64,000 nt of DNA from Candidatus Omnitrophota bacterium (GTDB taxonomy: Bacteria; Omnitrophota; Omnitrophia; Omnitrophales; JACQQS01). The translations under genes were made by a program, and so were the position numbers. The stretch is from positions 1,899 through 65,898 of the forward strand of contig JACQQS010000070.1 in NCBI GenBank assembly GCA_016206925.1, read 5' to 3'. This document shows positions 1,605-43,092 of the stretch, piece after piece (positions within the stretch are counted from its first letter, which is position 1; each line of letters starts with the position of its first letter). A model generated the notes under the pieces. It was given only the letters and a program-made list of their open reading frames with translations. It had not been told where the DNA came from and searched no databases.

Positions 1605-1670
1605 AGAGAGCTATCAGCTATCAGTCGTCGGCTAAAATTTTTGGCTGAAAGCTGACGGCTGAGAGCTCAG
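1605..1670 (+). repeat. Intercistronic hairpin built from tandem heptamers
   Basis: The left arm is AGCTATC AGCTATC AGTCGTC (1609-1629). The right arm is GGCTGAA AGCTGAC GGCTGAG AGCTCAG (1643-1670). Positions 1609-1633 pair with 1643-1667 at 21 of 25 positions (17 WC + 4 GU) around the loop AAAATTTTT. Confidence 0.6.
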
Positions 1671-2256: not shown

Positions 2257-3444
2257 ATGGCTTTCTGTCCGGTGGAAGAGCTGATTGCAGAAGTAAAACA
2301 AGGCCGCATGATCATTGTGACCGATGATGAATCACGTGAAAATGAGGGCGATTTGATTTTGGCCGCGCATTTTACGTCGCCTGAAAACATAAACTTCATG
2401 ATGAAACATGCCAGAGGTCTCATATGTATTCCGATGACGGATAGCCGGCTTCAAAACCTTGGGCTTCGCGATATGGTCGATCAAAGTGATGATTCCATGC
2501 GAACGGCTTTTACCGTATCGGTGGATGCCAAGCATGGCGTAACGACGGGAATTTCCGCGCATGATCGATCGCGTACGATAGAAGTTCTCGCCGATCTCAA
2601 GTACTCGGGGAATGACATAGTAACGCCGGGCCACGTTTTCCCGCTTCGCGCAAAGAGAGGGGGAGTGCTCAGACGTTCCGGACATACGGAAGCAGCGATT
2701 GACTTGATGCGGCTTGCCGGGCTGAATGAGGTCGCCATTATATGCGAGATCATAAACGACGATGGTTCGATGGCCAGACTTCCGGATCTCGAGCAATTTG
2801 CGGCAACGCATGGTTTCAAAATGGGAACCATCGCGGATCTTATTAGTTACCGGAGGATGAGAGAAAAGCTTGTTGAATTTGTAGCGGAGGCCGACATACC
2901 GACCAAATTTGGAATGTGGCACGGCAAATTGTACCGATCGCTGATTGATCAAAAGGAGCACATGGCGCTCATTTTTGGAAAAATAGATGAAACACCCCAA
3001 TTGGTACGCGTTCATTCCGAATGTTTTACCGGTGACGTTCTTGGTTCCATGCGCTGTGATTGCCGGGCACAGCTCAATGCGGCTATGGAGAACATAGCTA
3101 AGGAAGGACGCGGAGTATTGCTTTATATCCGGCAGGAAGGACGCGGCATTGGTCTCGCAAACAAATTGAAAGCTTATGCACTTCAGGATCAGGGATATGA
3201 TACCGTGGAGGCCAACGAGAAGCTTGGATTCCGTCCGGACCTGCGCGATTACGGAATTGGCGCTCAAATTCTAAAAGATCTTGGCTTAAGCAAGATCCGG
3301 CTCTTGACCAATAATCCCAAGAAAATTATCGGATTGGAAGGGCATGGTTTACAAGTTGTTGAACGGATTCATATGGATGTTCAGCTCCACGAACTAAATA
3401 GGGATTATGTGCAAACAAAGCGTGAAAAGTTGGGGCATTTTTAG
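2257..3444 (+). CDS. ribBA: Bifunctional 3,4-dihydroxy-2-butanone-4-phosphate synthase / GTP cyclohydrolase II
   Basis: DHBP synthase motifs ([26 protein letters not shown]) are followed by GCH-II motifs ([29 protein letters not shown]). AAGAGG lies upstream of the ATG. Confidence 0.95.
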
Positions 3445-3968: not shown

Positions 3969-4407
3969 ACGAACACTTGCCCGCGAACATTGCTTAAAGC
4001 TGCTTTATCAGATTAATTTGAGCGGCTTGGAGGATATTGCGGCGGTTCTCAACGACTACTGGAAAAATCTTCCGACACCGGCGGAAGAAGAAGTGATTCA
4101 ATTTGCGGAGCGGATTGTCAGAGGCACGATTGAACAGCTGACTTTTATTGACATGATCATATCGAAATATGCCGAGAATTGGAATCTAGAGCGAATGGCC
4201 GTTATCGATCGGAACGTTTTACGCGCCGCAACATATGAACTGCTTTTTCTTGCCGAGGAAATTCCCCCGAAAGTGGTAATTAATGAGTCCGTTAATTTGG
4301 CAAAGAAATTTTCTACGGAAGAATCGGGGCGCTTTGTAAACGGTGTGTTGGACAAAATAAATCATAGCGAACCACGCATTTCAATACCTCCGGCCGCCTC
4401 CTCATAA
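3958..4407 (+). CDS. nusB: Transcription antitermination factor NusB
   Basis: R..ARE.CLKLLYQ, AVIDRNVLRAATYEL and INESVNLAKKF..EESGRFVNGVLDKI are the NusB signature. Confidence 0.9.
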   Translation: MMRKRTLAREHCLKLLYQINLSGLEDIAAVLNDYWKNLPTPAEEEVIQFAERIVRGTIEQLTFIDMIISKYAENWNLERMAVIDRNVLRAATYELLFLAEEIPPKVVINESVNLAKKFSTEESGRFVNGVLDKINHSEPRISIPPAASS

Positions 4408-6746: not shown

Positions 6747-8354
6747 ATGTTTACAAACACCCTTCGAGTTCTCAAAAAATCTCCCGCCTCAGACTGGAGC
6801 GTCATTCTAAATCCGATCCATAGCGAAATTGCCAAAAATGAAGCGGTTCAAAAAATTGTAGAAGTTTTCCCGATTACGGCGAGTGAGGCCGAAGAATTGG
6901 TTGAAAGAACCCCGCTCATTTTATTGGAATCTCTTTCAGAAGAAGATGCGCATCGAGTTCGCGAGCATTTTGCACGCGCCAACGTCGACTTGATGGTAAG
7001 CGTCGATGCAACGTTGCGGCGTCGTTGCTATAGGACGGTTTGGCCTGAGCGGCCGTCATTAGACTTCATCAAAAGGGTTGAATCAAGTCCAGCGGTTTCG
7101 GAGGATGATTTTCTAAGGAAGGACGAGCCGCGACGGGAAACGCCTGTCAATAATAGCCGTCCTGCGACTCTTGAGCGCTCTCCCGTAGATCGTTCCAAAC
7201 CCACACTAACCGATAATGGCTATTTTAAGTCCGTTCCTAAGAAAATAGAGAAATCGGACTTTGCTCGCCGCTACGCGTTCGAAGAAACGCCCCCCGAAGC
7301 CAGATATTCTGCCGAGCGGCTGCCAATGCCTGAGCGTGACTCGCTTATTGATGAGTTAAAGGATAGATTGCTGGGCATGCAGAGAAAAGCTTCTGAGGCC
7401 GAGGAAGAAAATAGGCGTCTCCGGTTGTCCCTCGAGAAGTTGGAGAAGGAAAAAAACGAACAGATGGCTGCCAACGGTTTGGAAACACAGCGCAGAAGTT
7501 TTGATTCGCTCAGTTTTGAATATGAAAAGAAGCAGGTACTATTGGAAGAAAAGGTCGAACAGTTAATCGATGAGCGAGACCAGTTAATCGATGATCTTTC
7601 CCGAGTCCGATCTCGACTTGGGGAGGTCGAGACGGAAAAAAACCGGTTATCATCCGAACAGGAAAGTGTGTTAAAGAAGCTTGCGTTCCGCGAGCAGGAG
7701 CTCGAGCAGATTAAAGTCGTGGTTGACCGGCAGCAGCGCCTGGAAGAAGAGAATAAGCAGCTGCGGTTGCGTTATGAGGATCTTGCTCAGGAAAGCGAGG
7801 AGCGTTACAAAAGGTTTCGGGAGATGGAAGGTGAGAGCAGAGCTGCTGAAATGCGCGCTCAACAGTTGACCGATGAAGTTCAGCGTTTAAAGAAGGAATT
7901 TGAAGAGGAACACGCGAGGGTCCGGGAGGAAGTTGATCTTCTCAGGCGGCGGGCGAAGGAGTTTGAGGTTGTGAAGGCGGAAAACAAGAGTATGCAGGAG
8001 GAACTTAGAGTCGCCCGCGATCGATTGAAGGAATTTACCATTAATCGGGAGCAGCAGGAAGCCATTGCCAAGAGATTGAGACTACAGAATGAGTTGATTG
8101 AGAAGGAAGCGCGGTTAAAGGAGCTGGTGAAAAAGCAGGAAATTATAGAGAGGGAAATTGTCGAACGCGGACAGGTTATCCAGCAGGTTCTCACGGAGCA
8201 GGAAGAAATAGAACGTGAAATTGTCCGTGCAAAGCAGGCTCAAAAGTATATTACTGAGCAAATCAAGTCGCGTGAAAAGCCGCATTTGAGGACACGCGGC
8301 CGGCTGGAAGTGAAATCGCCGGAGGCATTAAACGAAGTCGGCGAAGACATGTAA
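6747..8354 (+). CDS. Long coiled-coil protein with an L7/L12-C-terminal-like N-domain
   Basis: Residues ~30-85 (KNEAVQKIVEVFPITASEAEELVERTPLILLESLSEEDAHRVREHFARANVDLMV) align by eye with the ribosomal L7/L12 CTD pattern (..EAKDLVE.AP..L.E.VS.EEAE.IK..LE.AGA.V). Residues ~190-520 are E/R/K/L/Q-rich heptad-like coiled coil. Confidence 0.6.
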   Translation: MFTNTLRVLKKSPASDWSVILNPIHSEIAKNEAVQKIVEVFPITASEAEELVERTPLILLESLSEEDAHRVREHFARANVDLMVSVDATLRRRCYRTVWPERPSLDFIKRVESSPAVSEDDFLRKDEPRRETPVNNSRPATLERSPVDRSKPTLTDNGYFKSVPKKIEKSDFARRYAFEETPPEARYSAERLPMPERDSLIDELKDRLLGMQRKASEAEEENRRLRLSLEKLEKEKNEQMAANGLETQRRSFDSLSFEYEKKQVLLEEKVEQLIDERDQLIDDLSRVRSRLGEVETEKNRLSSEQESVLKKLAFREQELEQIKVVVDRQQRLEEENKQLRLRYEDLAQESEERYKRFREMEGESRAAEMRAQQLTDEVQRLKKEFEEEHARVREEVDLLRRRAKEFEVVKAENKSMQEELRVARDRLKEFTINREQQEAIAKRLRLQNELIEKEARLKELVKKQEIIEREIVERGQVIQQVLTEQEEIEREIVRAKQAQKYITEQIKSREKPHLRTRGRLEVKSPEALNEVGEDM

Positions 8355-8879: not shown

Positions 8880-9812
8880 ATGGGTAATCAGATGGCAGAC
8901 TATGATGTAATGGTGATCGGAGCGGGGGGAGCCGGTCTTACGGCTGCGCTCTATACATCCCGTGCCATGCTCTCAACCATTGTTTTGGAGAAATTGACTC
9001 CCGGTGGGCAGATTGCCCTGACGGATGAAGTGGAGAATTATCCCGGGTTTCCGCAAGGAGTGACCGGTCCAAAAATATCGGAGTATATGCTGGAGCAGGC
9101 GAAAAAATACGGCGCGGAGTATGAACTTCGCGAGGTTGCATCAATCAAGCCGCAGGGAAAAGTGATTGAAGTCGAGACGCTTGAGGGAAATATTCGAGCA
9201 AAGGCCGTTATCGTTGCAACCGGAGCTTCCTATCGCCGCCTTGGCGTAACTGGCGAGGAAGCGCTTACGGGAAAAGGTGTTTCTTATTGCGCCACATGTG
9301 ACGGAGCTTTCTTTAAAGGAAAAGAATTGGTGGTGGTCGGCGGTGGCGATGCCGCGATGCAAGAAGGCATATTTTTAACGCGTTATGCAACTAAGATAAC
9401 CGTTGTGCACCGTCGGGACAAGTTGCGTGCTTCGCCGATTCTCCAGGACCGGGCGCGAAACAATCCGAAGATTTCTTTTACCTGGAATACGGTAATCGAT
9501 AGCATTAACGGTGCCAAGAAGGTCGAGTCCGTAACGTTGAAACATGTCGAGAGCGGAGCGAAACAGGATAAAAAGATAGATGGCGTATTTGTCTTTGTCG
9601 GGCAAATTCCTCAGACCGGTTTTTTAAAAGGTGTTCTCGAACTGGATGCCGGTGGATATATCATCACGCAAAATGGTTCGACTCAAACCGGCGTCAAAGG
9701 AGTTTTTGCATGTGGGGAAGTTAGAAGTGGAGCCGTCAAGCAATTGGTGTCGGCTTGCGGTGAGGGATGCGAGGCCGCGCTGGCAGCACAGCATTATATT
9801 GAAAATCAATGA
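8880..9812 (+). CDS. trxB: Thioredoxin-disulfide reductase
   Basis: FAD GxGxxG (VIGAGGAGLTAA), redox-active CATCDG, NADPH site VVGGGDAAMQEG, and C-terminal FACGEV. Confidence 0.95.
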   Translation: MGNQMADYDVMVIGAGGAGLTAALYTSRAMLSTIVLEKLTPGGQIALTDEVENYPGFPQGVTGPKISEYMLEQAKKYGAEYELREVASIKPQGKVIEVETLEGNIRAKAVIVATGASYRRLGVTGEEALTGKGVSYCATCDGAFFKGKELVVVGGGDAAMQEGIFLTRYATKITVVHRRDKLRASPILQDRARNNPKISFTWNTVIDSINGAKKVESVTLKHVESGAKQDKKIDGVFVFVGQIPQTGFLKGVLELDAGGYIITQNGSTQTGVKGVFACGEVRSGAVKQLVSACGEGCEAALAAQHYIENQ

Positions 9813-10324
9813 AGCCGGCCCATCCCGCTATTCTGAAGGCTTTCCGCATGTTTCGCGCGGGGATTTTGCTGCTCGTTTTGTCCGCCATGGCTGAGCCCGT
9901 TCACATACGAAATTTTGAAACTACCCTGTCGGATTTTTCTCTTCCCAAGCTGAACGGCGAGATGGTCAGCTTGTCAGATTTTAAAGGAAAAAATCCGGTT
10001 TTGCTCGTTTTCTTTGCAACGTGGTGCCTCCCCTGTAATGTCGAAGTTCCATTAGTCAATAAGATTCATCGTGAATATGGAGCGAAAGGCCTGGTACTTC
10101 TTGCCATTGATGTTCAGGAATCGAAAATGGAAGTGGAGCAATGGGCAAAAAAACGCGGCGTAGAATATCCGATTCTTCTCGATCAGAAGGGTTCGGTGGT
10201 TCTTGACTACGGGATTTATTCTGTTCCAACCAACATTCTCATTAATTTTGACGGTGAGGTTGCTTTCTGGCATAATGTGCTTCCAAACAAGCGTGTGCTT
10301 GACGCCGTTTTCAGAGGACAATAG
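9809..10324 (+). CDS. TlpA/ResA-like thiol:disulfide oxidoreductase (redoxin), exported
   Basis: ATGA overlap with the trxB stop. N-terminal signal/anchor, thioredoxin-fold motif FFATWCLPC, and Y.V...PT cis-Pro region. Confidence 0.8.
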   Translation: MKPAHPAILKAFRMFRAGILLLVLSAMAEPVHIRNFETTLSDFSLPKLNGEMVSLSDFKGKNPVLLVFFATWCLPCNVEVPLVNKIHREYGAKGLVLLAIDVQESKMEVEQWAKKRGVEYPILLDQKGSVVLDYGIYSVPTNILINFDGEVAFWHNVLPNKRVLDAVFRGQ

Positions 10325-11494: not shown

Positions 11495-12328
11495 ATGGCC
11501 GGGCAAAAAATTAAGGCGGCTTGCATCCAGATGGCGGCGACGTCGGATGTAGAAAAGAATTTAGATCTCGCCGAAAAAATGATTCGACGGGCCGTCAAAA
11601 AAGGCGCTCGGCTTGTTTGTCTCCCCGAAGTATTTCATTTCAGGGGGGATTCTTCCAAGCTGAATTTGATCTCCGGATTTATTCCCGGAAGCATTACCCG
11701 TCGATTTCAAAAGCTGGCAAAGGAAAAGGGGATTCACGTATTGCTGGGCTCCGTGATAGAGCGAAGCAAAAGACGGGGAAAATTTTATAATACAAGCGTG
11801 TTCATAGATTCGAAAGGCCGGATCATGGCCACGTATAGGAAGCGCCACTTATTTGAAATTCGGCGCCGGGGAATGGGGCAGATCGTTGAAGCCAAAGGCG
11901 GAATGTTGCGTGGAAACAAAGATGCCGTTGTCGACATCGAAGGGATTTGCCTGGGGCTTGCTGTTTGTTACGATATCCGCTTTCCGGAGTTCTTGGGACG
12001 ATTGGTCCGGAAGGGTGCGGAAATTATGCTGCTTCCCTCCAACTTTGTTTTTGAGACGGGGAAAGCTCATTGGGAAGTTCTCTGCCGTGCTCGGGCAATT
12101 GAAAATCTCTGCTATGTTGTCGCGCCCAATCAGGGCGGCAAAAACCCGCATTCGGGTGTGCGCTCTTTTGGCCGATCTCTGATCGTAGATCCGTGGGGCC
12201 GAGTACTGGCGCGCGGCTCTTTGTCCGGCAATGAAGTTCTGACAGCCACTTTGGATTTGGGACTCTTGAGACGGATCCGCCGCGAGTTTCCAACGCTGAA
12301 GAAGCGGTTTTCCTCCTCGTCTTTCTAA
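11495..12328 (+). CDS. Carbon-nitrogen hydrolase (nitrilase/omega-amidase family)
   Basis: CN-hydrolase catalytic E-K-C context: LPEVF, YRKRHLF and GLAVCYDIRFPE. Confidence 0.85.
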   Translation: MAGQKIKAACIQMAATSDVEKNLDLAEKMIRRAVKKGARLVCLPEVFHFRGDSSKLNLISGFIPGSITRRFQKLAKEKGIHVLLGSVIERSKRRGKFYNTSVFIDSKGRIMATYRKRHLFEIRRRGMGQIVEAKGGMLRGNKDAVVDIEGICLGLAVCYDIRFPEFLGRLVRKGAEIMLLPSNFVFETGKAHWEVLCRARAIENLCYVVAPNQGGKNPHSGVRSFGRSLIVDPWGRVLARGSLSGNEVLTATLDLGLLRRIRREFPTLKKRFSSSSF

Positions 12329-14554: not shown

Positions 14555-14589
14555 ATCCCGGCTCCTTTCTTCTGCTGTGAGTCGGACAA

Positions 14590-14619
14590 GAAACCACCCT
14601 TGCGGTGGTTTTCTTTTTT
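14590..14619 (+). terminator. Rho-independent terminator candidate after rpmA
   Basis: GAAACCACC / GGTGGTTTTC stem (7-9 bp) with loop CTTGC, followed by a T-run (TTTTTT). Confidence 0.55.
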
Positions 14620-14641
14620 AAAGGAGCATTGACGCCTTACC

Positions 14642-15598
14642 ATGTTTATTGATGAAGTTGCCATTACCGTTCAGTCAGGATCAGGAGGACGCGGGTGTGA
14701 AAGTTTTTGTCTGCGTACCGATCATAAGAAGGTTCCCGATGGCGGTGACGGCGGCAAGGGAGGCGATATCATCTTCTGCGCGGATAAAAACGTTTCCGGT
14801 TTGGAAGACTTTGTCAACAGGCGCGTTATTCGTGCAGAGGCCGGTGGATCCGGAGGAGCAAATTTTAAAACCGGCAGGAGCAGTGCTCCAGTTGTTATGC
14901 GACTCCCTTGCGGTACGCTCATTTTAAATCGGGAAACCGATCTCCGAATTCGAGATCTTGCTGACCATGGCGATGAGGTTGTCGTGGCAAAAGGCGGAAG
15001 AGGGGGCGCAGGCAATCAACATGGTCGTCGCGTGTGTGATCCTGGTGAGGGTCATGCTGTTCAATTAATGTTGATTCTCAAACTGGTCAGTCATGTCGCG
15101 TTGGTTGGCCTGCCCAACAGTGGAAAATCTCTTCTCTTGAATCAATTAACCGGCGCGCGCGCCAAAGTAGATACTTACCCTTTCTCGACGAAATCTCCTC
15201 AACTGGGCGTGTTCGAAGCCTCTGATTATCGTCAGCTAAAAATATGCGAGCTGCCGGGAATTCTGGAAGGTTCTCACGCCGGAAAAGGGCTTGGCAACAA
15301 ATTTTTAAGGCATCTTGAGCGGACACAGCTGATCGTCGTACTGCTGGATCCATTCAATGACTACAAATTGGGCGTGCGCGAAGGTTATAAAGTGCTTCTT
15401 CATGAGCTGGGGCGCTATGCCGAAAATATACCCGATATTCCTCGCATGATCGTTGTCAATAAATCTGATCTGCCCGGCTTTGCTAAGCGCTTAGCCGGCA
15501 TGAAGTCCGAATTCAAGGAACCGGTATTTCTAGTTTCTGCGCTGACGGGAAACGGAATCGATAAGTTAAAGCAGGCATTGGAGCGAGCTGTCTCATGA
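14642..15598 (+). CDS. obg: GTPase Obg/CgtA (short form, no C-terminal TGS-like domain)
   Basis: Obg-fold N-terminus (MFIDEV.I.V.SG.GG.G..SF...DGG.GG.GG.I) and G domain (GLPNSGKSLLLN, ELPG, NKSD). It is only 318 aa. Confidence 0.9.
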   Translation: MFIDEVAITVQSGSGGRGCESFCLRTDHKKVPDGGDGGKGGDIIFCADKNVSGLEDFVNRRVIRAEAGGSGGANFKTGRSSAPVVMRLPCGTLILNRETDLRIRDLADHGDEVVVAKGGRGGAGNQHGRRVCDPGEGHAVQLMLILKLVSHVALVGLPNSGKSLLLNQLTGARAKVDTYPFSTKSPQLGVFEASDYRQLKICELPGILEGSHAGKGLGNKFLRHLERTQLIVVLLDPFNDYKLGVREGYKVLLHELGRYAENIPDIPRMIVVNKSDLPGFAKRLAGMKSEFKEPVFLVSALTGNGIDKLKQALERAVS

Positions 15599-16731
15599 AT
15601 ACGAATGCGGGTAATCTTTGTAAGCGCGTCCGCCGCATTGTTCTAAAGATCGGTACAAGCGTGCTAACAACCGCGAAAGGTCATTTTTCGCTTGCGGCCG
15701 TTAATCAGCTGGTCAATCAGATTGCTTCCTTGAGAAAGGATGGCAAGGAAATGATCGTTGTCAGTTCCGGAGCCATTGCCTGCGGAATGGATACGCTTCG
15801 GATTACGGCCCGGCCCAGGACGCTTCCCGAACTTCAGGCTTGCGCAGCCGTGGGGCAGGGCAAGCTGATGAAAGCATACGAAGATGCAGCCATTCAACAT
15901 GGTTTTCATACCGCTCAGATTTTGCTTACCCGGGACGGTCTCTACGACCGTTTGCGTTACCTGAATTTTCGAAATACCTTGAATTCTTTGCTCGCCCTCG
16001 GCGCCGTTCCCATTGTAAATGAAAACGATTCGGTCAGCACCGATGAGATAAGGTTTGGAGATAATGACATGCTTTCAGCGCTCGTGGCTGCGGCCGTTCA
16101 GCCGGATTTGCTCATACTTTTGACGGATGTTTCCGGATTAATCGATCGCGCCAAACATACACGCATTCCGCGAATCGCTTCCGTGACTGAATTGGATCAC
16201 GCCATAAAGAATCATGTTTATGACGAGGTCAGGCAACATACCGTGGGAGGCATGTTTGCGAAATTAAAGGCCATCCGCATTGTGATGCGGTCCGGCGTTA
16301 CGGCCGTAATGGCGGACGGCAAGTTGGAGAATATACTTGAGGATATTCTTCAAGAGAAAGATTGTGGTACATTTTTTATTCCTGTGAAAAGCAGATTAAA
16401 AGGCCGCAAACAATGGTTGGCCCACCATGCGAAAGTGAAGGGCGTATTGGCCGTCGATAGCGGCGCTTACGAAGCGCTTGTGATGTCGGGCAAAAGTCTT
16501 TTGGCTAGCGGAGTCCGGCGCGTTGAAGGAAATTTTAAGGAAGGAGACATTGTCTCTATCTGCGATCATCACTGCCGCGAATTCGCCAGGGGGCTTGTTA
16601 ATTACTCGTACGAAGATTTATGCAAGATTATGGGAAAGAAAAGCCAGGAGATAAGTGCTATACTGAACGCCACAACGTTCCGGGAAGTTATTCATCGAGA
16701 CAATCTTGCCGTACTTCTGGAGAACGAATGA
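15595..16731 (+). CDS. proB: Glutamate 5-kinase (with PUA domain)
   Basis: ATGA overlap with obg. RIVLKIGTSVLT, VSSGAIA.G and NENDSVSTDEIRFGDND motifs, plus a C-terminal PUA domain (GDIVSI...ARGLVNYS). Confidence 0.95.
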   Translation: MNTNAGNLCKRVRRIVLKIGTSVLTTAKGHFSLAAVNQLVNQIASLRKDGKEMIVVSSGAIACGMDTLRITARPRTLPELQACAAVGQGKLMKAYEDAAIQHGFHTAQILLTRDGLYDRLRYLNFRNTLNSLLALGAVPIVNENDSVSTDEIRFGDNDMLSALVAAAVQPDLLILLTDVSGLIDRAKHTRIPRIASVTELDHAIKNHVYDEVRQHTVGGMFAKLKAIRIVMRSGVTAVMADGKLENILEDILQEKDCGTFFIPVKSRLKGRKQWLAHHAKVKGVLAVDSGAYEALVMSGKSLLASGVRRVEGNFKEGDIVSICDHHCREFARGLVNYSYEDLCKIMGKKSQEISAILNATTFREVIHRDNLAVLLENE

Positions 16732-17987
16732 CGACCTCCAAATTGGCTTTCCTTCTTGCTAAGAGGGCCCAAGACGCCGCCTCGGTCCTGGCCCAACTGC
16801 CTTCCGTGAAAAAGATTAAAATCCTTCGCGATGTGGCCCGGCGCATGCGCGGTTCGGTCAAATTCATGCTTGCTGCCAATCGGCGCGATGTGGAAACCGC
16901 CAAGAAACATGACTTGCCGCCTGCCATGTTCGATCGGCTTTCTCTAAATGAGAGTCGGATCCAGGCCATGGCGAAAGCTGTGGATGACGTGGCCGTATTG
17001 CCGGATCCTATAGGAGTGTGCCAGAAGCGTTGGACAAGACCCAACGGTCTTAAACTTGAAAGAGTGACGGTGCCGCTCGGGGTGATATTGATCATATTTG
17101 AATCTCGGCCAAATGTGTCAAGCGAATGCGCATCACTTTGCCTTAAGAGCGGGAATAGCGTCATTTTGCGGGGCGGCAAGGAGGCATTTCATTCGAACCG
17201 GGCGATTGCGGGAATCTATCAGAGCGTATATGAAAAACATGGGGTTTCCAAAGCAGCCTGTCAGGCGGTCAGTACAACGGATCGCAAGCTCGTGTCGGAG
17301 CTTCTTAAACAGGATGATTTGATCAATTTGGTTATTCCGCGCGGAGGGGAAGGTCTTATTCGAACCGTTGCCTCAGAATCTCGCATTCCGGTGATTAAAC
17401 ATTACAAGGGAATTTGCCACGTCTTCATTGATAAAAACGCAGATTTGGAGCAAGCCGTCCAAATCGTTATCAATGCGAAATGCCAACGGCCCTCGGTTTG
17501 CAATGCTATCGAAACATTGCTTGTTCACCGGGCTGTTGCCGGACGGGCACTGCCGGCTGTTTGCTCTGCGCTGGAAGAAGAAGGCTGTGAGTTAAGAGGA
17601 GATGCGGAAACGAGAAGAATTGTCGGCAAGAGTGTTTCACCCGCTTCGGAAGAGGATTGGCGTACGGAATACCTGGATAAAATTCTTTCTATCCGTATCG
17701 TGAAAGACATCGATACGGCTATTGATCACATTAGAAAATATGGTTCGGCGCATACGGATGCCATCGTATCGAAAGATGTTCGAGCCATACAGAAATTCGT
17801 TCAACAAGTGGATTCGTCATCCGTGATGGTCAATGCGTCAACTCGGTTCTCCGACGGAAATGAGTACGGCTTTGGAGCGGAGATGGGTATCTCTACGGAC
17901 AAGATTCATGCGCGCGGGCCCATGGGACTCGAGGGATTAACATCTTATAAGTACATCGTCCGCGGAAAAGGGCATATAAGGAAGTGA
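16728..17987 (+). CDS. proA: Glutamate-5-semialdehyde dehydrogenase
   Basis: I prefer ATG 16728 (ATGA overlap with the proB stop) over 16620, which would overlap proB by 112 nt. Motifs include IFESRPNV, ILRGGKEA, PRGG..LI, CNA.ETLLVH, and HTDAI and NASTRF.DG..FG.GAE.GIST.K.HARGP. Confidence 0.95.
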   Translation: MTTSKLAFLLAKRAQDAASVLAQLPSVKKIKILRDVARRMRGSVKFMLAANRRDVETAKKHDLPPAMFDRLSLNESRIQAMAKAVDDVAVLPDPIGVCQKRWTRPNGLKLERVTVPLGVILIIFESRPNVSSECASLCLKSGNSVILRGGKEAFHSNRAIAGIYQSVYEKHGVSKAACQAVSTTDRKLVSELLKQDDLINLVIPRGGEGLIRTVASESRIPVIKHYKGICHVFIDKNADLEQAVQIVINAKCQRPSVCNAIETLLVHRAVAGRALPAVCSALEEEGCELRGDAETRRIVGKSVSPASEEDWRTEYLDKILSIRIVKDIDTAIDHIRKYGSAHTDAIVSKDVRAIQKFVQQVDSSSVMVNASTRFSDGNEYGFGAEMGISTDKIHARGPMGLEGLTSYKYIVRGKGHIRK

Positions 17988-31451: not shown

Positions 31452-31457
31452 CTTGAG

Positions 31458-31520
31458 CGTAAAAGTAAAAGCGAAAAAGGAAAGAAGTATTCTTTTGCCT
31501 TTTTGCTTTGCGTTTTAACT
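31458..31520 (+). terminator. Long imperfect A-rich/U-rich hairpin after tRNA-Pro (possible terminator)
   Basis: The left arm GTAAAAGTAAAAGCGAAAAAGGAAAGA pairs with TCTTTTGCCTTTTTGCTTTGCGTTTTAAC, with bulges, around the loop AGTAT. The right arm ends in T-runs. Confidence 0.4.
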
Positions 31521-31544
31521 TTTTAAGTGCAAAGCGGGCTTTAG

Positions 31545-31848: not shown

Positions 31849-35260
<3,412 letters not shown>

Positions 35261-36201: not shown

Positions 36202-36543
36202 ATGCATTACAAGAATCTCTTATTTTTCGTTTTCCTCGCTTTATTTTTGGTTCCCGTAGCTTCTTCTGCTGAGGAGGAGGATAAGATTGAGCCTGCGCGG
36301 TATGAAAAATACGACCACGGCGTAATCGGAAAACCGGGGGATGCGGCGGAAAGGATGGTTCTTGGATTTGAAAAAAACCGGGAAATGAAACCCGCCGGAA
36401 ACATTGTTCACGTTGAGAGCACCGATGATTATTTGGGCAAAGGCATAGAGGAAATTAAGTCCAAAGTTTCGAAGCTGGAAGCAAGATTGTCCGAAACAGA
36501 GAGAAGATTAGGCGCTCTCGAAGCCAAATTTAAGAAAGGTTGA
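36202..36543 (+). CDS. Small secreted protein with a C-terminal coiled coil
   Basis: I prefer ATG 36202 (signal peptide MHYKNLLFFVFLALFLVPVASSA) over 36145. I recognise no family. Confidence 0.5.
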   Translation: MHYKNLLFFVFLALFLVPVASSAEEEDKIEPARYEKYDHGVIGKPGDAAERMVLGFEKNREMKPAGNIVHVESTDDYLGKGIEEIKSKVSKLEARLSETERRLGALEAKFKKG

Positions 36544-36552
36544 AATGCCGAT

Positions 36553-36876
36553 TCATATTCCAGTTACATCTTCATAATCTCTTGACCGCGTACTCGTGAT
36601 TTTGTGAATCAGTAAATCTTCGGGAGTTACCACTTTTGCCTTAACCCCTGCAAATTACAAAGACGGCTCCTTTTAATTGCGTTATGCTCAAGCACGTTTT
36701 CAGCAATGATGAAATCTACTTTTCCCCAGGCTTTTGCTTTTTTGAAGCGCATGGGAATGACCCCTGCTTGGTTCGCCGTGGACCGATACGGCAATTCCTC
36801 CCAGAATAGCGTATCGGACTTTTTCGGAGGATAAAAATTGGGTGAGCGACTTCAGGAGAATTTGAAACGAATTCAC
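36553..36876 (-). pseudogene. Frameshifted remnant of a small nucleotidyltransferase-fold (MNT-like) gene
   Basis: Three - strand reading-frame pieces together resemble a ~108-aa NTase. Piece 1 is VNSFQILLKSLTQFLSSEKVRYAILGGIAVSVHGEP (GTG at 36876, stop at 36700-36702). Piece 2 is ..GKVDFIIAENVLEHNAIK... Piece 3 is ..AKVVTPEDLLIHKITSTRSRDYEDVTGI* (stop at 36553-36555). At least two frameshifts are needed. Confidence 0.4.
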
Positions 36877-37217
36877 GGCTGGACGCGGCTAAACAAGGCA
36901 TGAATACGGCTTAGCGCCCGTATTTTAGACAAATGCATGCGCCGAGCATGGCGATTTTTAGGCAAGTTTTCCGCAAATAAATGGAAATCTTTCAGAAGTT
37001 GTGCACTCCTGGTTTTCGATAGCCTGGGCAAAAATTTCCGGCGATACTTTTCCTCGGTTCGGTGCAGTTGTTTCCATCGATTCATATTGCGATTCCCATG
37101 TGAAGCGAAATAAAAGCGGCTGATTATATTTAACCGGCGAAGACTTGTAAATGTTTGCCTATGAAGGGTTTTAACTTGCAGAGCGCCCTTAAATGGCTTA
37201 ATTATTCGTTTTGACAT
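36873..37217 (-). CDS. Doubtful ORF (114 aa, extremely basic), GTGA-coupled to the NTase remnant
   Basis: ORF only, with R/K-rich low-complexity composition. An alternative frame holds a 66-codon ORF over the same DNA. It may itself be decayed. Confidence 0.2.
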   Translation of the reverse strand: MSKRIIKPFKGALQVKTLHRQTFTSLRRLNIISRFYFASHGNRNMNRWKQLHRTEEKYRRKFLPRLSKTRSAQLLKDFHLFAENLPKNRHARRMHLSKIRALSRIHALFSRVQP

Positions 37218-37354
37218 GCTATGTACATATAGTATACTAAGCCGTTCTTGTTACTACCCCTAGTCGAAACCCAGTTAAAAGGCGGATGTTCATATATACC
37301 TACAAGCTTACTTAGGGACATGTAAGTAAGCGGATGTGTGTTGTCCGTGCCGGA

Positions 37355-37432
37355 GGCGCTATCGTCTAGGCCGGCCTAGGACGTCAGATTCTCATTCTGA
37401 AAACACGGGTTCGAATCCCGTTAGCGCTACCA
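37355..37432 (+). tRNA. tRNA-Glu (anticodon CTC), CCA encoded
   Basis: Acceptor GGCGCTA/TAGCGCT (G1:U72), D arm GTCT..GGAC, anticodon stem TCAGA/TCTGA with loop TTCTCAT, 4-nt variable loop, T arm ACGGG-TTCGAAT-CCCGT, then ACCA. Confidence 0.9.
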
Positions 37433-37435
37433 AAA

Positions 37436-37497
37436 GCGTGAAGCGTGAAGCGTGAAGCGTGAAGCGTAGGTCATGTGCTTGGCGCTTCACAATTCAC
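37436..37497 (+). repeat. Tandem heptamer array (GCGTGAA x4.7) forming a hairpin with a downstream complement
   Basis: GCGTGAA occurs at 37436, 37443, 37450 and 37457, plus a partial GCGTA. Positions 37452-37466 pair with 37483-37497 (8 bp + 2 mismatches + 5 bp). The structure abuts the purB SD AAGGAGG (37498-37504). Confidence 0.8.
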
Positions 37498-37512
37498 AAG
37501 GAGGTTGAGGTA

Positions 37513-38835
37513 ATGATCGATCGTTACACGCGCCGGGAAATGGGTGCCGTTTGGACTGAGGAAGCAAAGCTCAAACAGTGGCTTGCCGTTGAAATAGCGG
37601 CCGCAGAAGCGCTCGCCAAGTACGGCTACATCCCCAGATCGGTTCCGGCAAAGCTGAAACGAGTTTCCTTCGATGTAAAGAGGGTCCAGGAAATCGAGGA
37701 AACCGTAAAGCACGACGTCATCGCGTTCCTGACCAATATTTCCGAATCCATGGGTGAAGATTCAAGGTTCGTGCATTACGGGCTTACATCCTCGGATGTT
37801 TTGGATACAGCCTTGGCGTTGCAGATCAAAGAGGCCGGAATGGTTCTTCGTAAAGGACTGAGCGATTTAATTGATGTATTGAAGGAAAGAGCGTTAGAAC
37901 ATCAATACACGCTTATGGTGGGGCGGAGTCACGGTGTTCACGCAGAGCCGACGACATTCGGCTTGAAGATAGCGCTCTTCTATGCGGAATTTAAGCGGCA
38001 CGCCGAGCGGCTCGATCACGCGCTTGACCAGGTGGCGTTTGGAAAAATTTCCGGCGCCGTGGGTACATTTGCCAATGTCGATCCGCAGGTGGAAGAATAC
38101 ACATGCAAGCTCCTGGGCTTGAAGCCGGAACCCATTTCGACCCAGATTATCCAGCGCGACCGCCACGCAGAATTTGTCGCCACGCTGGCGCTTATGGGTT
38201 CTTCGCTTGAAAAGCTGGCGACGGAAATCCGCCACCTTCAGAAAACTGAGACGCAGGAAGTCCAGGAAGAATTCTCGCAAGGCCAAAAGGGTTCCTCCGC
38301 CATGCCGCACAAGCGTAATCCGGTGACCTGCGAGCGGATTGCCGGTCTTTCTCGAATACTTCGCGGTAACGCGGTGGCGGCGCTTGAAAACATTGCGCTT
38401 TGGCACGAGCGCGACATCACGCATTCGTCCGTGGAGCGGATAATTATTCCGGACACTTCCATATTGGCCGATTACATGCTGAGCCAGATGACGAAAGTTG
38501 TCCGTAACCTTGTCGTTAACAAGGAAAATATGGAGCAGAATTTGAAGTTAAGCCGCGGCATGATTTTCTCGCAAGGACTGCTTCTAAATCTAATTTCAAA
38601 GGGCCTTTCCCGTGAAGATACGTATGCACTTGTACAGAAAGCCTCAGCGCAAGTGTGGGCCGATGAGAAAATGGATTTGAAAGGCGTTGCGCTTAAAGAC
38701 AAGGAAATCCGACGCTATTTGAGCGCCAAGGAGATCGAAGTTATTTTTGACTTTTCGTACCACACGAAAAACGTGAATAAGATTTTCGCGCGACTAGGAC
38801 TCGGGAAGATTAAACGGACAACTAAGGTAGGATAG
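37513..38835 (+). CDS. purB: Adenylosuccinate lyase
   Basis: I prefer ATG 37513 (AAGGAGG upstream) over 37459, which would read through the heptamer array. MIDRYTR.EM...W and the fumarate-lyase signature GSSAMPHKRNP. Confidence 0.95.
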   Translation: MIDRYTRREMGAVWTEEAKLKQWLAVEIAAAEALAKYGYIPRSVPAKLKRVSFDVKRVQEIEETVKHDVIAFLTNISESMGEDSRFVHYGLTSSDVLDTALALQIKEAGMVLRKGLSDLIDVLKERALEHQYTLMVGRSHGVHAEPTTFGLKIALFYAEFKRHAERLDHALDQVAFGKISGAVGTFANVDPQVEEYTCKLLGLKPEPISTQIIQRDRHAEFVATLALMGSSLEKLATEIRHLQKTETQEVQEEFSQGQKGSSAMPHKRNPVTCERIAGLSRILRGNAVAALENIALWHERDITHSSVERIIIPDTSILADYMLSQMTKVVRNLVVNKENMEQNLKLSRGMIFSQGLLLNLISKGLSREDTYALVQKASAQVWADEKMDLKGVALKDKEIRRYLSAKEIEVIFDFSYHTKNVNKIFARLGLGKIKRTTKVG

Positions 38836-38840
38836 TATCC

Positions 38841-38909
38841 GTCATTCCCGCGTAAGCGGGAATCCAGTGGATTTGTAATTCACTAGACCCCCGCTTTCGC
38901 GGGGGCGAC
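38841..38909 (+). repeat. Composite palindromic (REP-like) element
   Basis: Arm A is GTCATTCCCGCGTAAGCGGGAATCCAGTGGAT (38841-38872). The reverse complement of arm A' (38878-38909) is GTCGCCCCCGCGAAAGCGGGGGTCTAGTGAAT, about 25/32 identical. Each arm also folds on its own: ATTCCCGC-GTAA-GCGGGAAT and CCCCCGC-TTTC-GCGGGGG. Confidence 0.75.
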
Positions 38910-38932
38910 AACGGTCTAAAGGAGAAAAGGAA

Positions 38933-39689: not shown

Positions 39690-39944
39690 ATGACTCAATT
39701 TAAAGCTCGAGTTTATGTTCAGCTAAAACCTTCGGTGCTCGATCCCCAGGGAAAAGCGATCGAGCATGCTCTTTCGGCGCTCGGCTTTTCGGCGGCCAAG
39801 AATGTTCGTGTCGGAAAATATTTTGATTTGGAAGTGAATGCCGATTCCAAGGAAGCGGCCGAAAAGCGTCTCGGCGAAATGGCGCACACACTTTTGGCCA
39901 ACCCGGTCATAGAAAATTTTTCCGTGAGCCTGGATATGAATTAG
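39690..39944 (+). CDS. purS: FGAM synthase subunit PurS
   Basis: An 84-aa protein with V.V.LKPSVLDPQGKAIEHAL..LGF and .VRVGK.F.L, placed before purQ-purL. Confidence 0.9.
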   Translation: MTQFKARVYVQLKPSVLDPQGKAIEHALSALGFSAAKNVRVGKYFDLEVNADSKEAAEKRLGEMAHTLLANPVIENFSVSLDMN

Positions 39945-39946
39945 AT

Positions 39947-40069
39947 GAAATTCGAATGTCGAAATTCGAAACAAATTTAAATTTCAAATGTTCGAATGAC
40001 CAAAAAAGCCGTTTTGAACATTAGGATTTTGGTCATTGGGATTTGTTTCGGATTTGGTGCTTAGGATTT
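39947..40069 (+). repeat. Compound intercistronic hairpin built from short word repeats
   Basis: The left arm has direct repeats GAAATTCGAA (39947, 39961; period 14). The right arm has four GGATTT words (40024, 40039, 40050, 40064). The outer stem pairs 39962-39976 with 40041-40055 (15 bp, 1 GU). The inner stem pairs 39995-40005 with 40027-40037 (11 bp, perfect). An alternative 10-bp stem pairs 39987-39996 with 40013-40022. Confidence 0.65.
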
Positions 40070-40072
40070 GAT

Positions 40073-43001: not shown

Positions 43002-43010
43002 CATTCATGC

Positions 43011-43077
43011 GAAACGAGCAACAAGAAACGAGTAACGTAAGACGTTCTTGTTACACGTTACGTGTTACTCGTTACTC
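43011..43077 (+). repeat. Intercistronic hairpin(s) with 14-nt and 7-nt word periodicity
   Basis: The left arm has GAAACGAG at 43011 and 43025 (period 14). The right arm has four tandem heptamers GTTACAC GTTACGT GTTACTC GTTACTC (43050-43077). Stem H2 pairs 43027-43038 with 43062-43073 (10 WC + 2 GU). Stem H1 pairs 43021-43030 with 43043-43051 (9 bp, 1 bulge). The two stems share 43027-43030, so they compete. Confidence 0.65.
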
Positions 43078-43092
43078 AGAAGGTTCGTGCAA

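Follow-up and report, generated by a model that had tools for sequence, protein, structure and literature searches.

Here, we describe an inverted array of 7-nt units located between a tRNA-Glu gene and purB in a 64,000-nt stretch of genomic DNA from a Candidatus Omnitrophota bacterium (GenBank assembly GCA_016206925.1, contig JACQQS010000070.1, positions 1,899 to 65,898 of the forward strand), hereafter the window, to which all coordinates refer unless a contig is named. This index element, in which GCGTGAA units face degenerate complementary units, forms a stable hairpin, is absent from the same junction in the nearest relatives, and shares its construction with other elements of the window and with intergenic arrays in highly diverged loci. 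On balance, we favor the reading that it is a palindromic repeat element of the DNA, with heptamer arrays for arms, that is transcribed as a passenger. A preliminary description of the same DNA had proposed a family of intercistronic elements that act in the RNA.

Anatomy, fold, and transcription of the index element

Three adenines separate the encoded CCA of tRNA-Glu from the first GCGTGAA unit at 37436 (Table 1). The four exact units of the preliminary description, followed by a partial one, were confirmed; Tandem Repeats Finder (TRF) reports them with 100% matches, and they start 3 nt after the CCA. TRF places the array at 37434-37467 with a 7-nt period, 4.9 copies, and 100% identity; 4.7 copies are counted from 37436. 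A 14-mer of the left arm has three exact matches within that arm and none elsewhere in the 64 kb. Identity at a lag of 7 nt is 0.94 in the left arm and 0.65 in the right arm. As described earlier, 37452-37466 pairs with 37483-37497 (13 of 15 positions), the right arm runs to 37497 and is directly followed, from 37498, by the AAGGAGG of purB, and the helix can form in several registers: 37438-37458 and 37445-37465 are also able to pair with 37477-37497, with complementarity of 81-87% over the three registers.

The plus-strand RNA of the element folds at -31.1 kcal/mol, compared with -17.8 ± 2.6 kcal/mol in 200 dinucleotide-shuffled controls, none of which folds as well (z -5.2). Because the anatomy was confirmed and the fold is far beyond that of the shuffles, the hairpin is a real feature and not a product of chance. 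When a 191-nt segment is folded, the tRNA cloverleaf and the hairpin both form, and spare heptamers are able to pair with purB codons 4-7. The PurB product, adenylosuccinate lyase, is 100% identical to protein P0001 of a Candidatus Omnitrophica metagenome-assembled genome (MAG).

Upstream of tRNA-Glu, a block at 37201-37313 that consists of a sigma-70-like promoter and ~75 nt downstream of it is ~77% conserved in the two closest relatives (contigs L002 and L005, introduced below) and has no Rfam match; the gap from this block to tRNA-Glu is 42 nt in the window and ~200 nt in the relatives. A terminator scan listed no terminator-like site from tRNA-Glu to purB. Judging by these sequence signals, the promoter probably drives a single transcript of tRNA-Glu and the pur operon, and, given the conserved promoter and the lack of an intervening terminator-like site, the index hairpin is most probably transcribed within it.

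The element is absent from orthologous junctions

The closest relatives of PurB among 5.8 billion proteins are 83% identical and are encoded on contigs L002 and L005, which are syntenic with the window from 31.3 to 49 kb; an exact look-up of the window's PurB gave no record, and a scan of genome contigs yielded nothing beyond an archaeal match of 43% identity. In both relatives, 6 nt separate tRNA-Glu from the ribosome-binding site, the entire tRNA/purB spacer is 22 nt, and the gap from purS to purQ is 7 nt; in L002, purL and purF overlap. The heptamer elements of the window, which amount to an additional ~62, ~129, and ~90 nt in these otherwise compact junctions, are absent at all three orthologous pur junctions of L002 and L005. 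Given this absence, they are lineage-specific insertions and not a conserved regulatory RNA, and the orthologous intergenic regions in which the preliminary description had proposed to look for covariation do not contain them. The 22-nt junction of the relatives holds no palindrome that could have served as a seed.

The orthologous tRNA-Glu genes of L002 and L005 are 97% identical to that of the window and have CGT after the discriminator, compared with CCA in the window (37430-37432; L002 9977-9979). The CCA may have arrived with the insert, in which case the route of 3' maturation would change.

Sister elements in the window

The 7-nt periodicity is specific: 35 of the 28-nt windows reach an identity of at least 0.7 at lag 7, and none does so at lags 4, 5, 6, or 8. 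The lag-7 windows are located at 1642-1673, 37426-37477, 39943-39974, and 43007-43081. All the elements, as noted earlier, occupy the space from a stop codon (or tRNA) to the next start, and the folds leave the ribosome-binding sites at 37498, 1674, and 43079 unpaired. The shared architecture that had been claimed for these sites is found in full at 1605-1670, with a T2SS-F-like gene on one side and a DUF192 gene on the other, and at 43009-43079, between purL and purF. At 39944-40072, between purS and purQ, the periodicity is confined to the outer arms, which enclose a perfect 11-bp inner stem, AATGACCAAAA/TTTTGGTCATT. The element at 43009-43079 consists of the units GAAACGA GCAACAA GAAACGA GTAACGT and GTTACAC GTTACGT GTTACTC GTTACTC, with a lag-7 identity of 0.76 in both arms, and is present in a single copy in the window. 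Shuffling controls, proposed in the preliminary description, bear out the structures: the index element, 1605-1670, and 39944-40072 (z -5.2, -5.5, and -3.6) all fold well beyond dinucleotide-shuffled sequences.

Each site has its own heptamer, and every arm sequence is single-copy within the 64 kb. The remaining intergenic spacers of the window contain promoters and a canonical U-tract terminator, with no heptamer hairpins. A palindrome after tRNA-Pro (31456-31522), earlier regarded as a looser member at 31458-31520, was removed from the class: its identity at lags 6, 7, and 8 (0.57, 0.59, and 0.62) is not specific to period 7, and its plus-strand fold is not significant (z -1.5). Two further identifications were considered and rejected. 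Integron attC sites have the consensus GTTRRRY, which the heptamers misfit, and the pur operon is no cassette array; as for CsrA-type GGA sites in 40030-40072, the GGA lies inside the stem, and copies of the family to which this element belongs are found in both orientations.

Inverted heptamer arrays form an intergenic class

As background, we used 80 metagenomic loci around distant PurB relatives (945 kb; 52-64% identity, of no use for orthology), which together with the window, L002, and L005 make up a census of 997 kb, ~92% of it coding by a crude call of open reading frames (ORFs). With a fixed 21 comparisons in each census window at lags 4 to 15, intergenic periodic clusters numbered 47 at lag 7, 27 at lag 14, and at most 12 at any other lag; coding clusters peak at multiples of three. 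Of the 72 lag-7 clusters, 47 fall within the non-coding 8% of the census (p = 2e-33) and 30 have an inverted partner (within 250 nt, z ≥ 4). The census folds are long stems, several of them interrupted every 7 nt, and the hairpins pack the spacers tightly, leaving 1-25 nt to the flanking ORFs. The hairpin-bearing loci are highly diverged, with PurB 48-70% identical in most pairs and GC content of 44-66%. Inverted arrays of 7-nt units are, therefore, supported as a real class by construction, strongly intergenic and usually filling the gap between stop codon and ribosome-binding site, in agreement with the earlier claim that the elements differ in sequence and share a construction rule.

The same preference for heptamers is apparent in IMG/VR contigs, which are viral by database label and are called phage-like here. 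Exact arrays of (GCGTGAA)3 are present in 8 contigs and those of three letter permutations of the unit in 7, 13, and 21, compared with 3 and 2 contigs for two octamer arrays of equal total length. Among arrays picked for tandemness alone, inverted partners accompany 15 of 66 arrays of heptamers and 0 of 5 arrays of octamers. A restricted vocabulary of heptamers was considered and rejected: the units are diverse, with CTGA in 12 of 55, and the permuted controls are as common as GCGTGAA.

Two contigs, L091 and L092, echo the layout of the index element, with (GCGTGAA)n, ACGCTTCAC units, AAGGAG or AAGGGAG, and a start codon in succession. A 12-kb viral contig, L090, carries four (GCGTGAA)n arrays, of which those at 3226-3268, 6817-6847, and 9809-9839 are just upstream of gene starts and that at 4361-4403 is known from a blastn match alone; the arrays at 6817 and 9809 precede another heptamer array, (AAATCGT)n.

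Dispersed families that include two of the sister elements

The element at 39944-40072 aligns over both arms, and partly over its core, with sequences on contigs L016, L026, L123, L141-L144, and L147. This family has the left arm AAATCCGAA..CGAAACAAAT, the right arm ATTTGTTTCGGATTTCGTGCTTMGGATTT (AAATCCG...CGGATTT in short), and variable centers, and its arms are conserved in at least 9 copies. With nhmmer, profiles of the arms recover the aligned copies, 39944-40072 among them at E-values of 3e-6 and 5e-4, which are rough for such short repetitive matches, and reveal further (second and third) copies on L143 and L147, contigs of 6 kb. Because contig L016 comes from a MAG of Deltaproteobacteria (Desulfobacterales-like), with a PurB 99% identical to P0121 on CP070704, the family spans phyla. 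Relative to the flanking genes, 3 copies are in the sense and 6 in the antisense orientation, and no common flank, target, or duplication was found in 12 copies. Contig L151, from a strain with a 98% identical PurB and near-identical flanks, has no counterpart of the 310-nt segment in which L016 carries the hairpin (L016 3701-4010, compared with L151 4292-4293). CTAG bounds this segment, whose inverted ends are imperfect and ~20 nt long; a second indel, of 93 nt, lies 50 nt further.

RNAalifold predicted 18 pairs from 9 copies of this family, 5 of them with double changes, which fit a symmetry of the arms kept by any mechanism. One copy (L144 1427-1563) had no match in collections of plasmids or cultured phages, a result to which low-complexity filtering may contribute. 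A text search of the literature for the AAATCCG/CGGATTT arm family returned no paper and one chance primer match.

The second family, GCTGANN, is defined by a 5' arm of TCAGC units and a 3' arm of GCTGA units, a description that the element at 1605-1670 fits; a blastn-short search of 1.5 Mb gave no homologues of 1600-1675 or 43005-43082, and 1600-1675 was assigned to the family by pattern. The GCTGANN x3 pattern is present in at least 120 IMG/VR contigs (L153-L272), and in some phage-like contigs, for example L258, L263, and L202, such hairpins are extremely abundant. Among the matches listed, to which the following counts also apply, there are up to 22 arrays per 12 kb, 40 of 42 strict inverted pairs share the polarity of 1605-1670, and 37 elements have its architecture and polarity with a modal 4+4 units. 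The element at L202 3297-3389 reads AGCTATCAGCTATCAGC, compared with AGCTATCAGCTATCAGT in the left arm of 1605-1670 (16 of 17 identical). Most GCTGANN elements lie between co-directional genes, close to the flanking ORFs. Their variable positions pair at chance level (0.34, compared with 0.375), so stem stability is not maximized, and neighboring units have the same variable dinucleotide in only 18%. Neither the strict core of 5 nt every 7 nt, whose variable positions are free and unpaired, nor the 40-to-2 polarity is explained by plain slippage or by selection for stem stability, and both hint at a factor by which DNA is read or written in a 7-nt register.

Both strands of the elements fold

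The preliminary description held that the pairing, being partly G-U, exists only in plus-strand RNA and that the elements are specific to the sense transcript. The first claim fails, and the second is not supported. Significant folds were likewise obtained for the minus strands (z -5.0, -4.3, -2.8, and -3.6), and with DNA parameters both strands are significant. The better fold is that of the sense strand in four of the five window elements and that of the minus strand in 43005-43082. When the arms were aligned with equal scores for the two kinds of transition, the result was 125 Watson-Crick positions, 28 plus-strand G-U positions, 13 A-C mismatches, and 15 others (28 versus 13, p = 0.03). 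The window has an excess of G on its plus strand (GC skew +0.093), and the keto content is 0.54-0.57 in the four plus-favoring elements and 0.46 in the minus-favoring element at 43009-43079; the G-U asymmetry tracks strand composition and, therefore, no RNA selection is needed to account for it. Mismatches weakly favor particular phases of the 7-nt period (62, compared with 55.8 expected; p = 0.02).

In co-directional contexts, about 6 of 11 cases beyond the window, and 11 of 17 in total (p = 0.33), have the sense strand as the more stable one. Of the two biases that the earlier proposal had predicted for wider copies, surveyed in ~1 Mb of metagenomic sequence and not across a whole genome, that toward intergenic location is thus strong (p = 2e-33), whereas that toward the transcribed strand did not appear. 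An orientation-specific RNA function under selection is not supported by orthologous conservation, strand asymmetry, or the orientation of family copies.

Comparison with described repeats and sites

Repetitive extragenic palindromes (REPs), their paired form REPIN, and MITE-type elements (miniature inverted-repeat transposable elements) are extragenic hairpins of 60-180 nt with two inverted arms, multi-copy, variably present among strains, found in either orientation, and co-transcribed with their neighbors. REP-type elements leave no target-site duplication, whereas classical MITEs do. REP arms are imperfect palindromes with a conserved 5' tetranucleotide of the GTAG type, and a gene for a REP-associated tyrosine transposase (RAYT) is present. 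The elements described here are likewise two-armed extragenic hairpins, and the sister families are multi-copy and found in either orientation, as are REP/REPIN small palindromic repeats (on REPINs, see PMC3116915) and MITEs. Unlike REPs, the index element has arms of direct 7-nt iterons with no GTAG palindrome, and no RAYT or transposase was found in 10 window proteins; unlike MITEs, the elements have inverted arms with no target-site duplications. REPs and REPINs are dispersed in one genome as many near-identical copies; here, the 39944-40072 family reaches 2-3 copies per 6-kb contig elsewhere and the GCTGANN family up to 22 arrays per 12 kb, and the index element has no further copy in the 64 kb. 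Contiguous 7-bp units, direct and inverted, are also bound by the omega repressor of inc18 plasmids, a ribbon-helix-helix protein that reads WATCACW heptads at promoters or partition sites. Unlike those operators, with their one heptad sequence, the elements here lack a promoter context, and no such protein was identified for them.

The closest described case is that of the inverted GGGAATC arrays of Xanthomonas (Rehm et al. 2015, PMC4692102), with 70-75 convergent inverted array pairs per genome that are capable of forming stem-loops or cruciforms. These arrays are intergenic, most often of ~4 units, transcribed on either strand, and variable in length between related species; one G-rich heptamer, studied as a G-quadruplex former, dominates the genome, and 83% of the sites are common to two species (PMC4692102). 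Similarly to the Xanthomonas pairs, the index element consists of two close convergent arrays on opposite strands that can form a stem-loop (inverted repeats I4, I5, and I25; z -5.2). Unlike in Xanthomonas, four different heptamers that are not G-quadruplex formers are found within 64 kb, at sites that are absent in the nearest relatives.

The preliminary description knew of no such class, yet heptamer repeats have been published: an excess of heptanucleotide simple repeats in prokaryotes, for which slippage was proposed (Mrazek 2007, summary in PMC4679880), a set of three heptanucleotides repeated in tandem in Calothrix, the short tandemly repeated repetitive (STRR) sequences of cyanobacteria (Mazel 1990, as cited in PMC4692102), and the TAACTGA, Geobacter, and inverted GGGAATC repeats. 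As in the STRR and heptamer repeats so summarised, the units here are tandem, 7 nt long, intergenic, and of several sequences per genome, and our census reproduces the lag-7 excess. Unlike the STRR in that account, which are direct arrays of a few fixed heptamers across the genome, the arrays are very short (~4 units) and laid out as inverted hairpins. The index element has the three to four or more head-to-tail 7-nt copies and the non-coding location of a heptameric simple repeat; recurrence of one or a few heptamers at many loci, as for STRR1-3, GGGAATC, and TAACTGA, was not found within the 64 kb.

The TAACTGA repeats of Beggiatoaceae are situated just upstream of start codons, with one inverted case among 170 sets (PMC4679880), and Geobacter metallireducens has the heptanucleotide elements GGACCGG x4 and MTYCTGA x5 (PMC2700814). 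Both kinds comprise 2-6 heptamer copies, are mostly intergenic, end a few nucleotides before a start codon, are almost all direct and in one orientation to the downstream gene, and have been read as sites for a translational regulator (PMC4679880, PMC2700814). Their CTGA core is shared with the GCTGANN family of 1605-1670; unlike these direct repeats, the window elements are inverted pairs. What differs here is the presence of several unrelated heptamers in one 64-kb stretch, the occurrence in Omnitrophota, and the membership of two neighbors in cross-lineage families for which we found no description.

Origin of the index element and alternative explanations

According to the interpretation that we favor, the element would have been inserted, or would have grown, in the Omnitrophica lineage of the window within a former 22-nt tRNA-Glu/purB junction, as one of the widespread intergenic heptamer arrays, often inverted pairs, of which some sequence families appear to be dispersed within genomes, across phyla, and in phage-like contigs. 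Occurrence in either orientation with no target-site duplications would resemble the behavior of REPIN- or MITE-type selfish repeats. The arms would then have been altered by slippage in the 7-nt register; the perfect left array opposite a degenerate right arm is the signature of slippage in the index element, and its absence in relatives is the signature of insertion. Situated inside the tRNA-Glu/pur transcript, the element would be transcribed, and its RNA stem-loop of about -31 kcal/mol would leave the purB ribosome-binding site free. Its most likely effect would be that of a passive structural passenger that, after excision of the tRNA, may form a 5'-terminal stem-loop on purB mRNA and act as an exonuclease barrier with incidental stabilization, and it would be tolerated because translation is not blocked. 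Mobility of the index copy is suggested by analogy with its neighbors, given that no second copy was found.

Several observations weigh against this interpretation. No homologous hairpin copy of the index element was found in the window, and 1.5 Mb of other DNA matched its tandem array only; L091 and L092 share unit and layout with it, with no clear ancestry. No transposase, RAYT, or other mobilizing gene, target-site duplication, or conserved target was identified; a Y1-transposase domain was found in none of the 10 window proteins scanned, and, in the test for target-site duplication, flanking direct repeats were not above chance in 20 of 21 elements, the lone exception being GATATGAAT flanking 39944-40072 (p = 0.015, uncorrected). 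The sense-strand preference of four of the five window elements and the excess of G-U over A-C pairs are equally what RNA-level selection predicts. Finally, the retention of a 5-nt core in the GCTGANN family, whose two variable positions neither pair nor homogenize, points to a sequence-specific constraint, such as a binding factor or the register of an enzyme, for which a purely selfish or neutral model has no explanation.

An unlikely, if serious, alternative is local birth with no mobility, in which a quasi-palindrome of the spacer was expanded by 7-nt slippage and template switching copied the expansions between the arms. The perfect 4.7-copy left arm and the degenerate right arm would be expected on this account, as would the similar frequencies at which arbitrary heptamers form arrays, the ~60% of lag-7 arrays with no inverted partner, the lack of both a target-site duplication and a homologous copy of the index hairpin, and the favoring of heptamers by polymerase slippage (Mrazek 2007, as summarised in PMC4679880), but the relatives' junction offers no seed palindrome, two sister elements belong to dispersed multi-copy families, GCTGANN neighbors differ in their variable dinucleotide as fresh slippage products would not, and the arm polarity is 40 to 2. 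That the elements are selected in the sense transcript, as 3'-exonuclease barriers, processing or protein-binding sites, or gates of the ribosome-binding site, appears to us quite improbable. This proposal would account for the strong sense folds (z -5.2, -5.5, and -3.6), the sense-strand and G-U preferences, the exact fit between stop codon and unpaired ribosome-binding site, the capacity of spare heptamers to pair with purB codons, and the five double-change pairs of the 39944-40072 family. It is opposed by the absence of the elements at three orthologous pur junctions, the significant minus-strand folds, the dependence of the G-U bias on strand G excess, with the keto-poor 43009-43079 favoring the minus strand, the lack of a sense bias outside the window (about 6 to 5; 11 to 6 overall), the predominantly antisense family copies, and the chance-level pairing of GCTGANN variable positions.

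A site in the DNA for a protein that reads 7-bp heptads, direct and inverted, as an operator, centromere-like, or nucleoid site would fit a core of 5 nt that is conserved at intervals of exactly 7 bp and leaves two positions free, the modal 4+4 units and fixed polarity of the GCTGANN family, the equivalence of the two strands, and the annotation of Geobacter heptanucleotide arrays as putative sites of a global regulator. Nevertheless, each window site uses a different heptamer, so that no single protein can read all of them, the sites lie within operons and not at promoters, no candidate binding protein was identified, and relatives with the same operon lack the element; we regard this explanation as very unlikely. 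An ordinary signal, namely an intrinsic terminator of tRNA-Glu, an attenuator, or a purine-responsive purB leader, is highly improbable; the sequence itself already contradicts it. The stable, GC-containing stem that lies directly 3' of a tRNA and 5' of a pur gene invites such a reading, but AAGGAGG and not a U tract follows the stem, the terminator scan does not list the site, and a true terminator of the window (~14588-14620) is canonical, with a U tract that the heptamer hairpins lack; Rfam 15 gave only two tRNAs at gathering score and nothing credible at E ≤ 5 in 36400-37600, and in the relatives this operon has a spacer of 22 nt. An artefact of assembly or amplification, to which a MAG is exposed and to which repeat copy number is prone, is scarcely credible when the architecture recurs in dozens of independent assemblies from different projects, including the neighborhoods of two complete genomes and IMG/VR, and no reading frame or ribosome-binding site around the inserts is disrupted.

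Implications

A bolder proposal, which we consider doubtful, is that heptamer-armed palindromes constitute a distinct, largely undescribed superfamily of non-autonomous mobile elements spread by an enzyme with a 7-nt register, across phyla and through phages. If so, a typical member would have 4+4 units, in which a conserved core of 5 nt recurs every 7 nt and two positions are free, and arms of fixed polarity; the multiplication and erosion of such elements would account for the heptanucleotide excess long noted in prokaryotic intergenic DNA, and the STRR, GGGAATC, TAACTGA, and Geobacter elements would be local views of it. The spacers of uncultured bacteria and phage-like contigs are colonized by palindromes in a 7-nt register, and structured inserts of 60-130 nt are tolerated at several junctions of a compact, translationally coupled pur operon. 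For annotation, such hairpins are better masked as repeats than labeled as regulatory RNAs or terminators, and spurious ORFs through them are to be disregarded. Beyond the single-genome literature, the AAATCCG...CGGATTT family in Omnitrophica and Deltaproteobacteria and the abundance, strict core, spacing, and polarity of GCTGANN turn the question of why heptamers into a testable one: one can look for a factor by which a 5-nt word is read or written at 7-nt intervals.

Features and other inserts around the pur operon

Table 1. Coordinates of the index element, its surroundings, and the other hairpins of the window
Feature	Position	Strand	Basis or remarks
Heptamer hairpin, ~4+4 units, AGCTATC AGCTATC AGTCGTC GGCTAAA / TGAAAGC TGACGGC TGAGAGC	1605..1670	+	fold -35.0, z -5.5
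A/T-rich imperfect palindrome after tRNA-Pro	31456..31522	+	plus strand z -1.5, not significant
Sigma-70-like promoter, TTGACA-16-TATACT	37211..37238	+	11 of 12 consensus positions; hexamers visible in L002 and L005
tRNA-Glu, anticodon CUC, encoded CCA	37355..37432	+	ARAGORN; Rfam tRNA, 58.7 bits
Index element, left arm: 4 perfect GCGTGAA units and partial GCGTA	37436..37468	+	TRF score 68, 100% matches
Index element, loop or inner hairpin spacer, 8 nt	37469..37476	+	minimum-free-energy and centroid structures
Index element, right arm GCTTGGCGCTTCACAATTCAC: ~3 degenerate complementary units, GCTTGGC GCTTCAC AATTCAC	37477..37497	+	inverted repeats I4, I5, I25
purB ribosome-binding site AAGGAGG (37498-37504) and ATG (37513); purB to 38835	37498..37515	+	sequence
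Composite hairpin, purS/purQ; outer arms of GAAATTC/GGATTTN-type heptamers	39944..40072	+	fold -37.2, z -3.6
Heptamer hairpin, 4+4 units, purL/purF	43009..43079	+	fold z -2.3 (+), -3.6 (minus)

The site after tRNA-Pro is an insertion hot spot. The palindrome at 31456-31522 is absent in L005, which has a 23-nt spacer, and L002 (4516-4632) carries a different insert of ~90 nt, which repeats the last ~25 nt of tRNA-Pro and its trailer and resembles the scar of an attachment site.

The same pur operon is colonized by repeats of other types in L005, where a 117-nt hairpin, CGTCATTGCGAGG...CCTCGCAATGACG, lies between purC and purS (12097-12213) and a 1.8-kb insert with a Band_7 gene and further palindromes lies between purL and purF (15404-17234). 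In the window, an insert of another type is located between purB and purC (38841-38915) and consists of two GC-rich palindromes, GTCATTCCCGCGTAAGCGGGAATCC and GACCCCCGCTTTCGCGGGGGCGAC; the corresponding spacer of L002 is 17 nt. Pieces homologous to this insert are found in L005 (15448-15476), L066 (both halves), L047, and L098 (twice), and that of L005 adjoins a 34-aa GIY-YIG fragment (Pfam E-value 5e-5).

Upstream of the operon, two tandem GC-rich hairpins at 34600-34670 span 54 nt (18 codons) in frame within the N-terminal region of a lipoprotein-like ORF (34589-35260) that starts just past the ligA stop codon and whose L002 orthologue is free of these hairpins. This looks like a palindromic insert tolerated in the n-region of a signal peptide, or else a shifted start codon.

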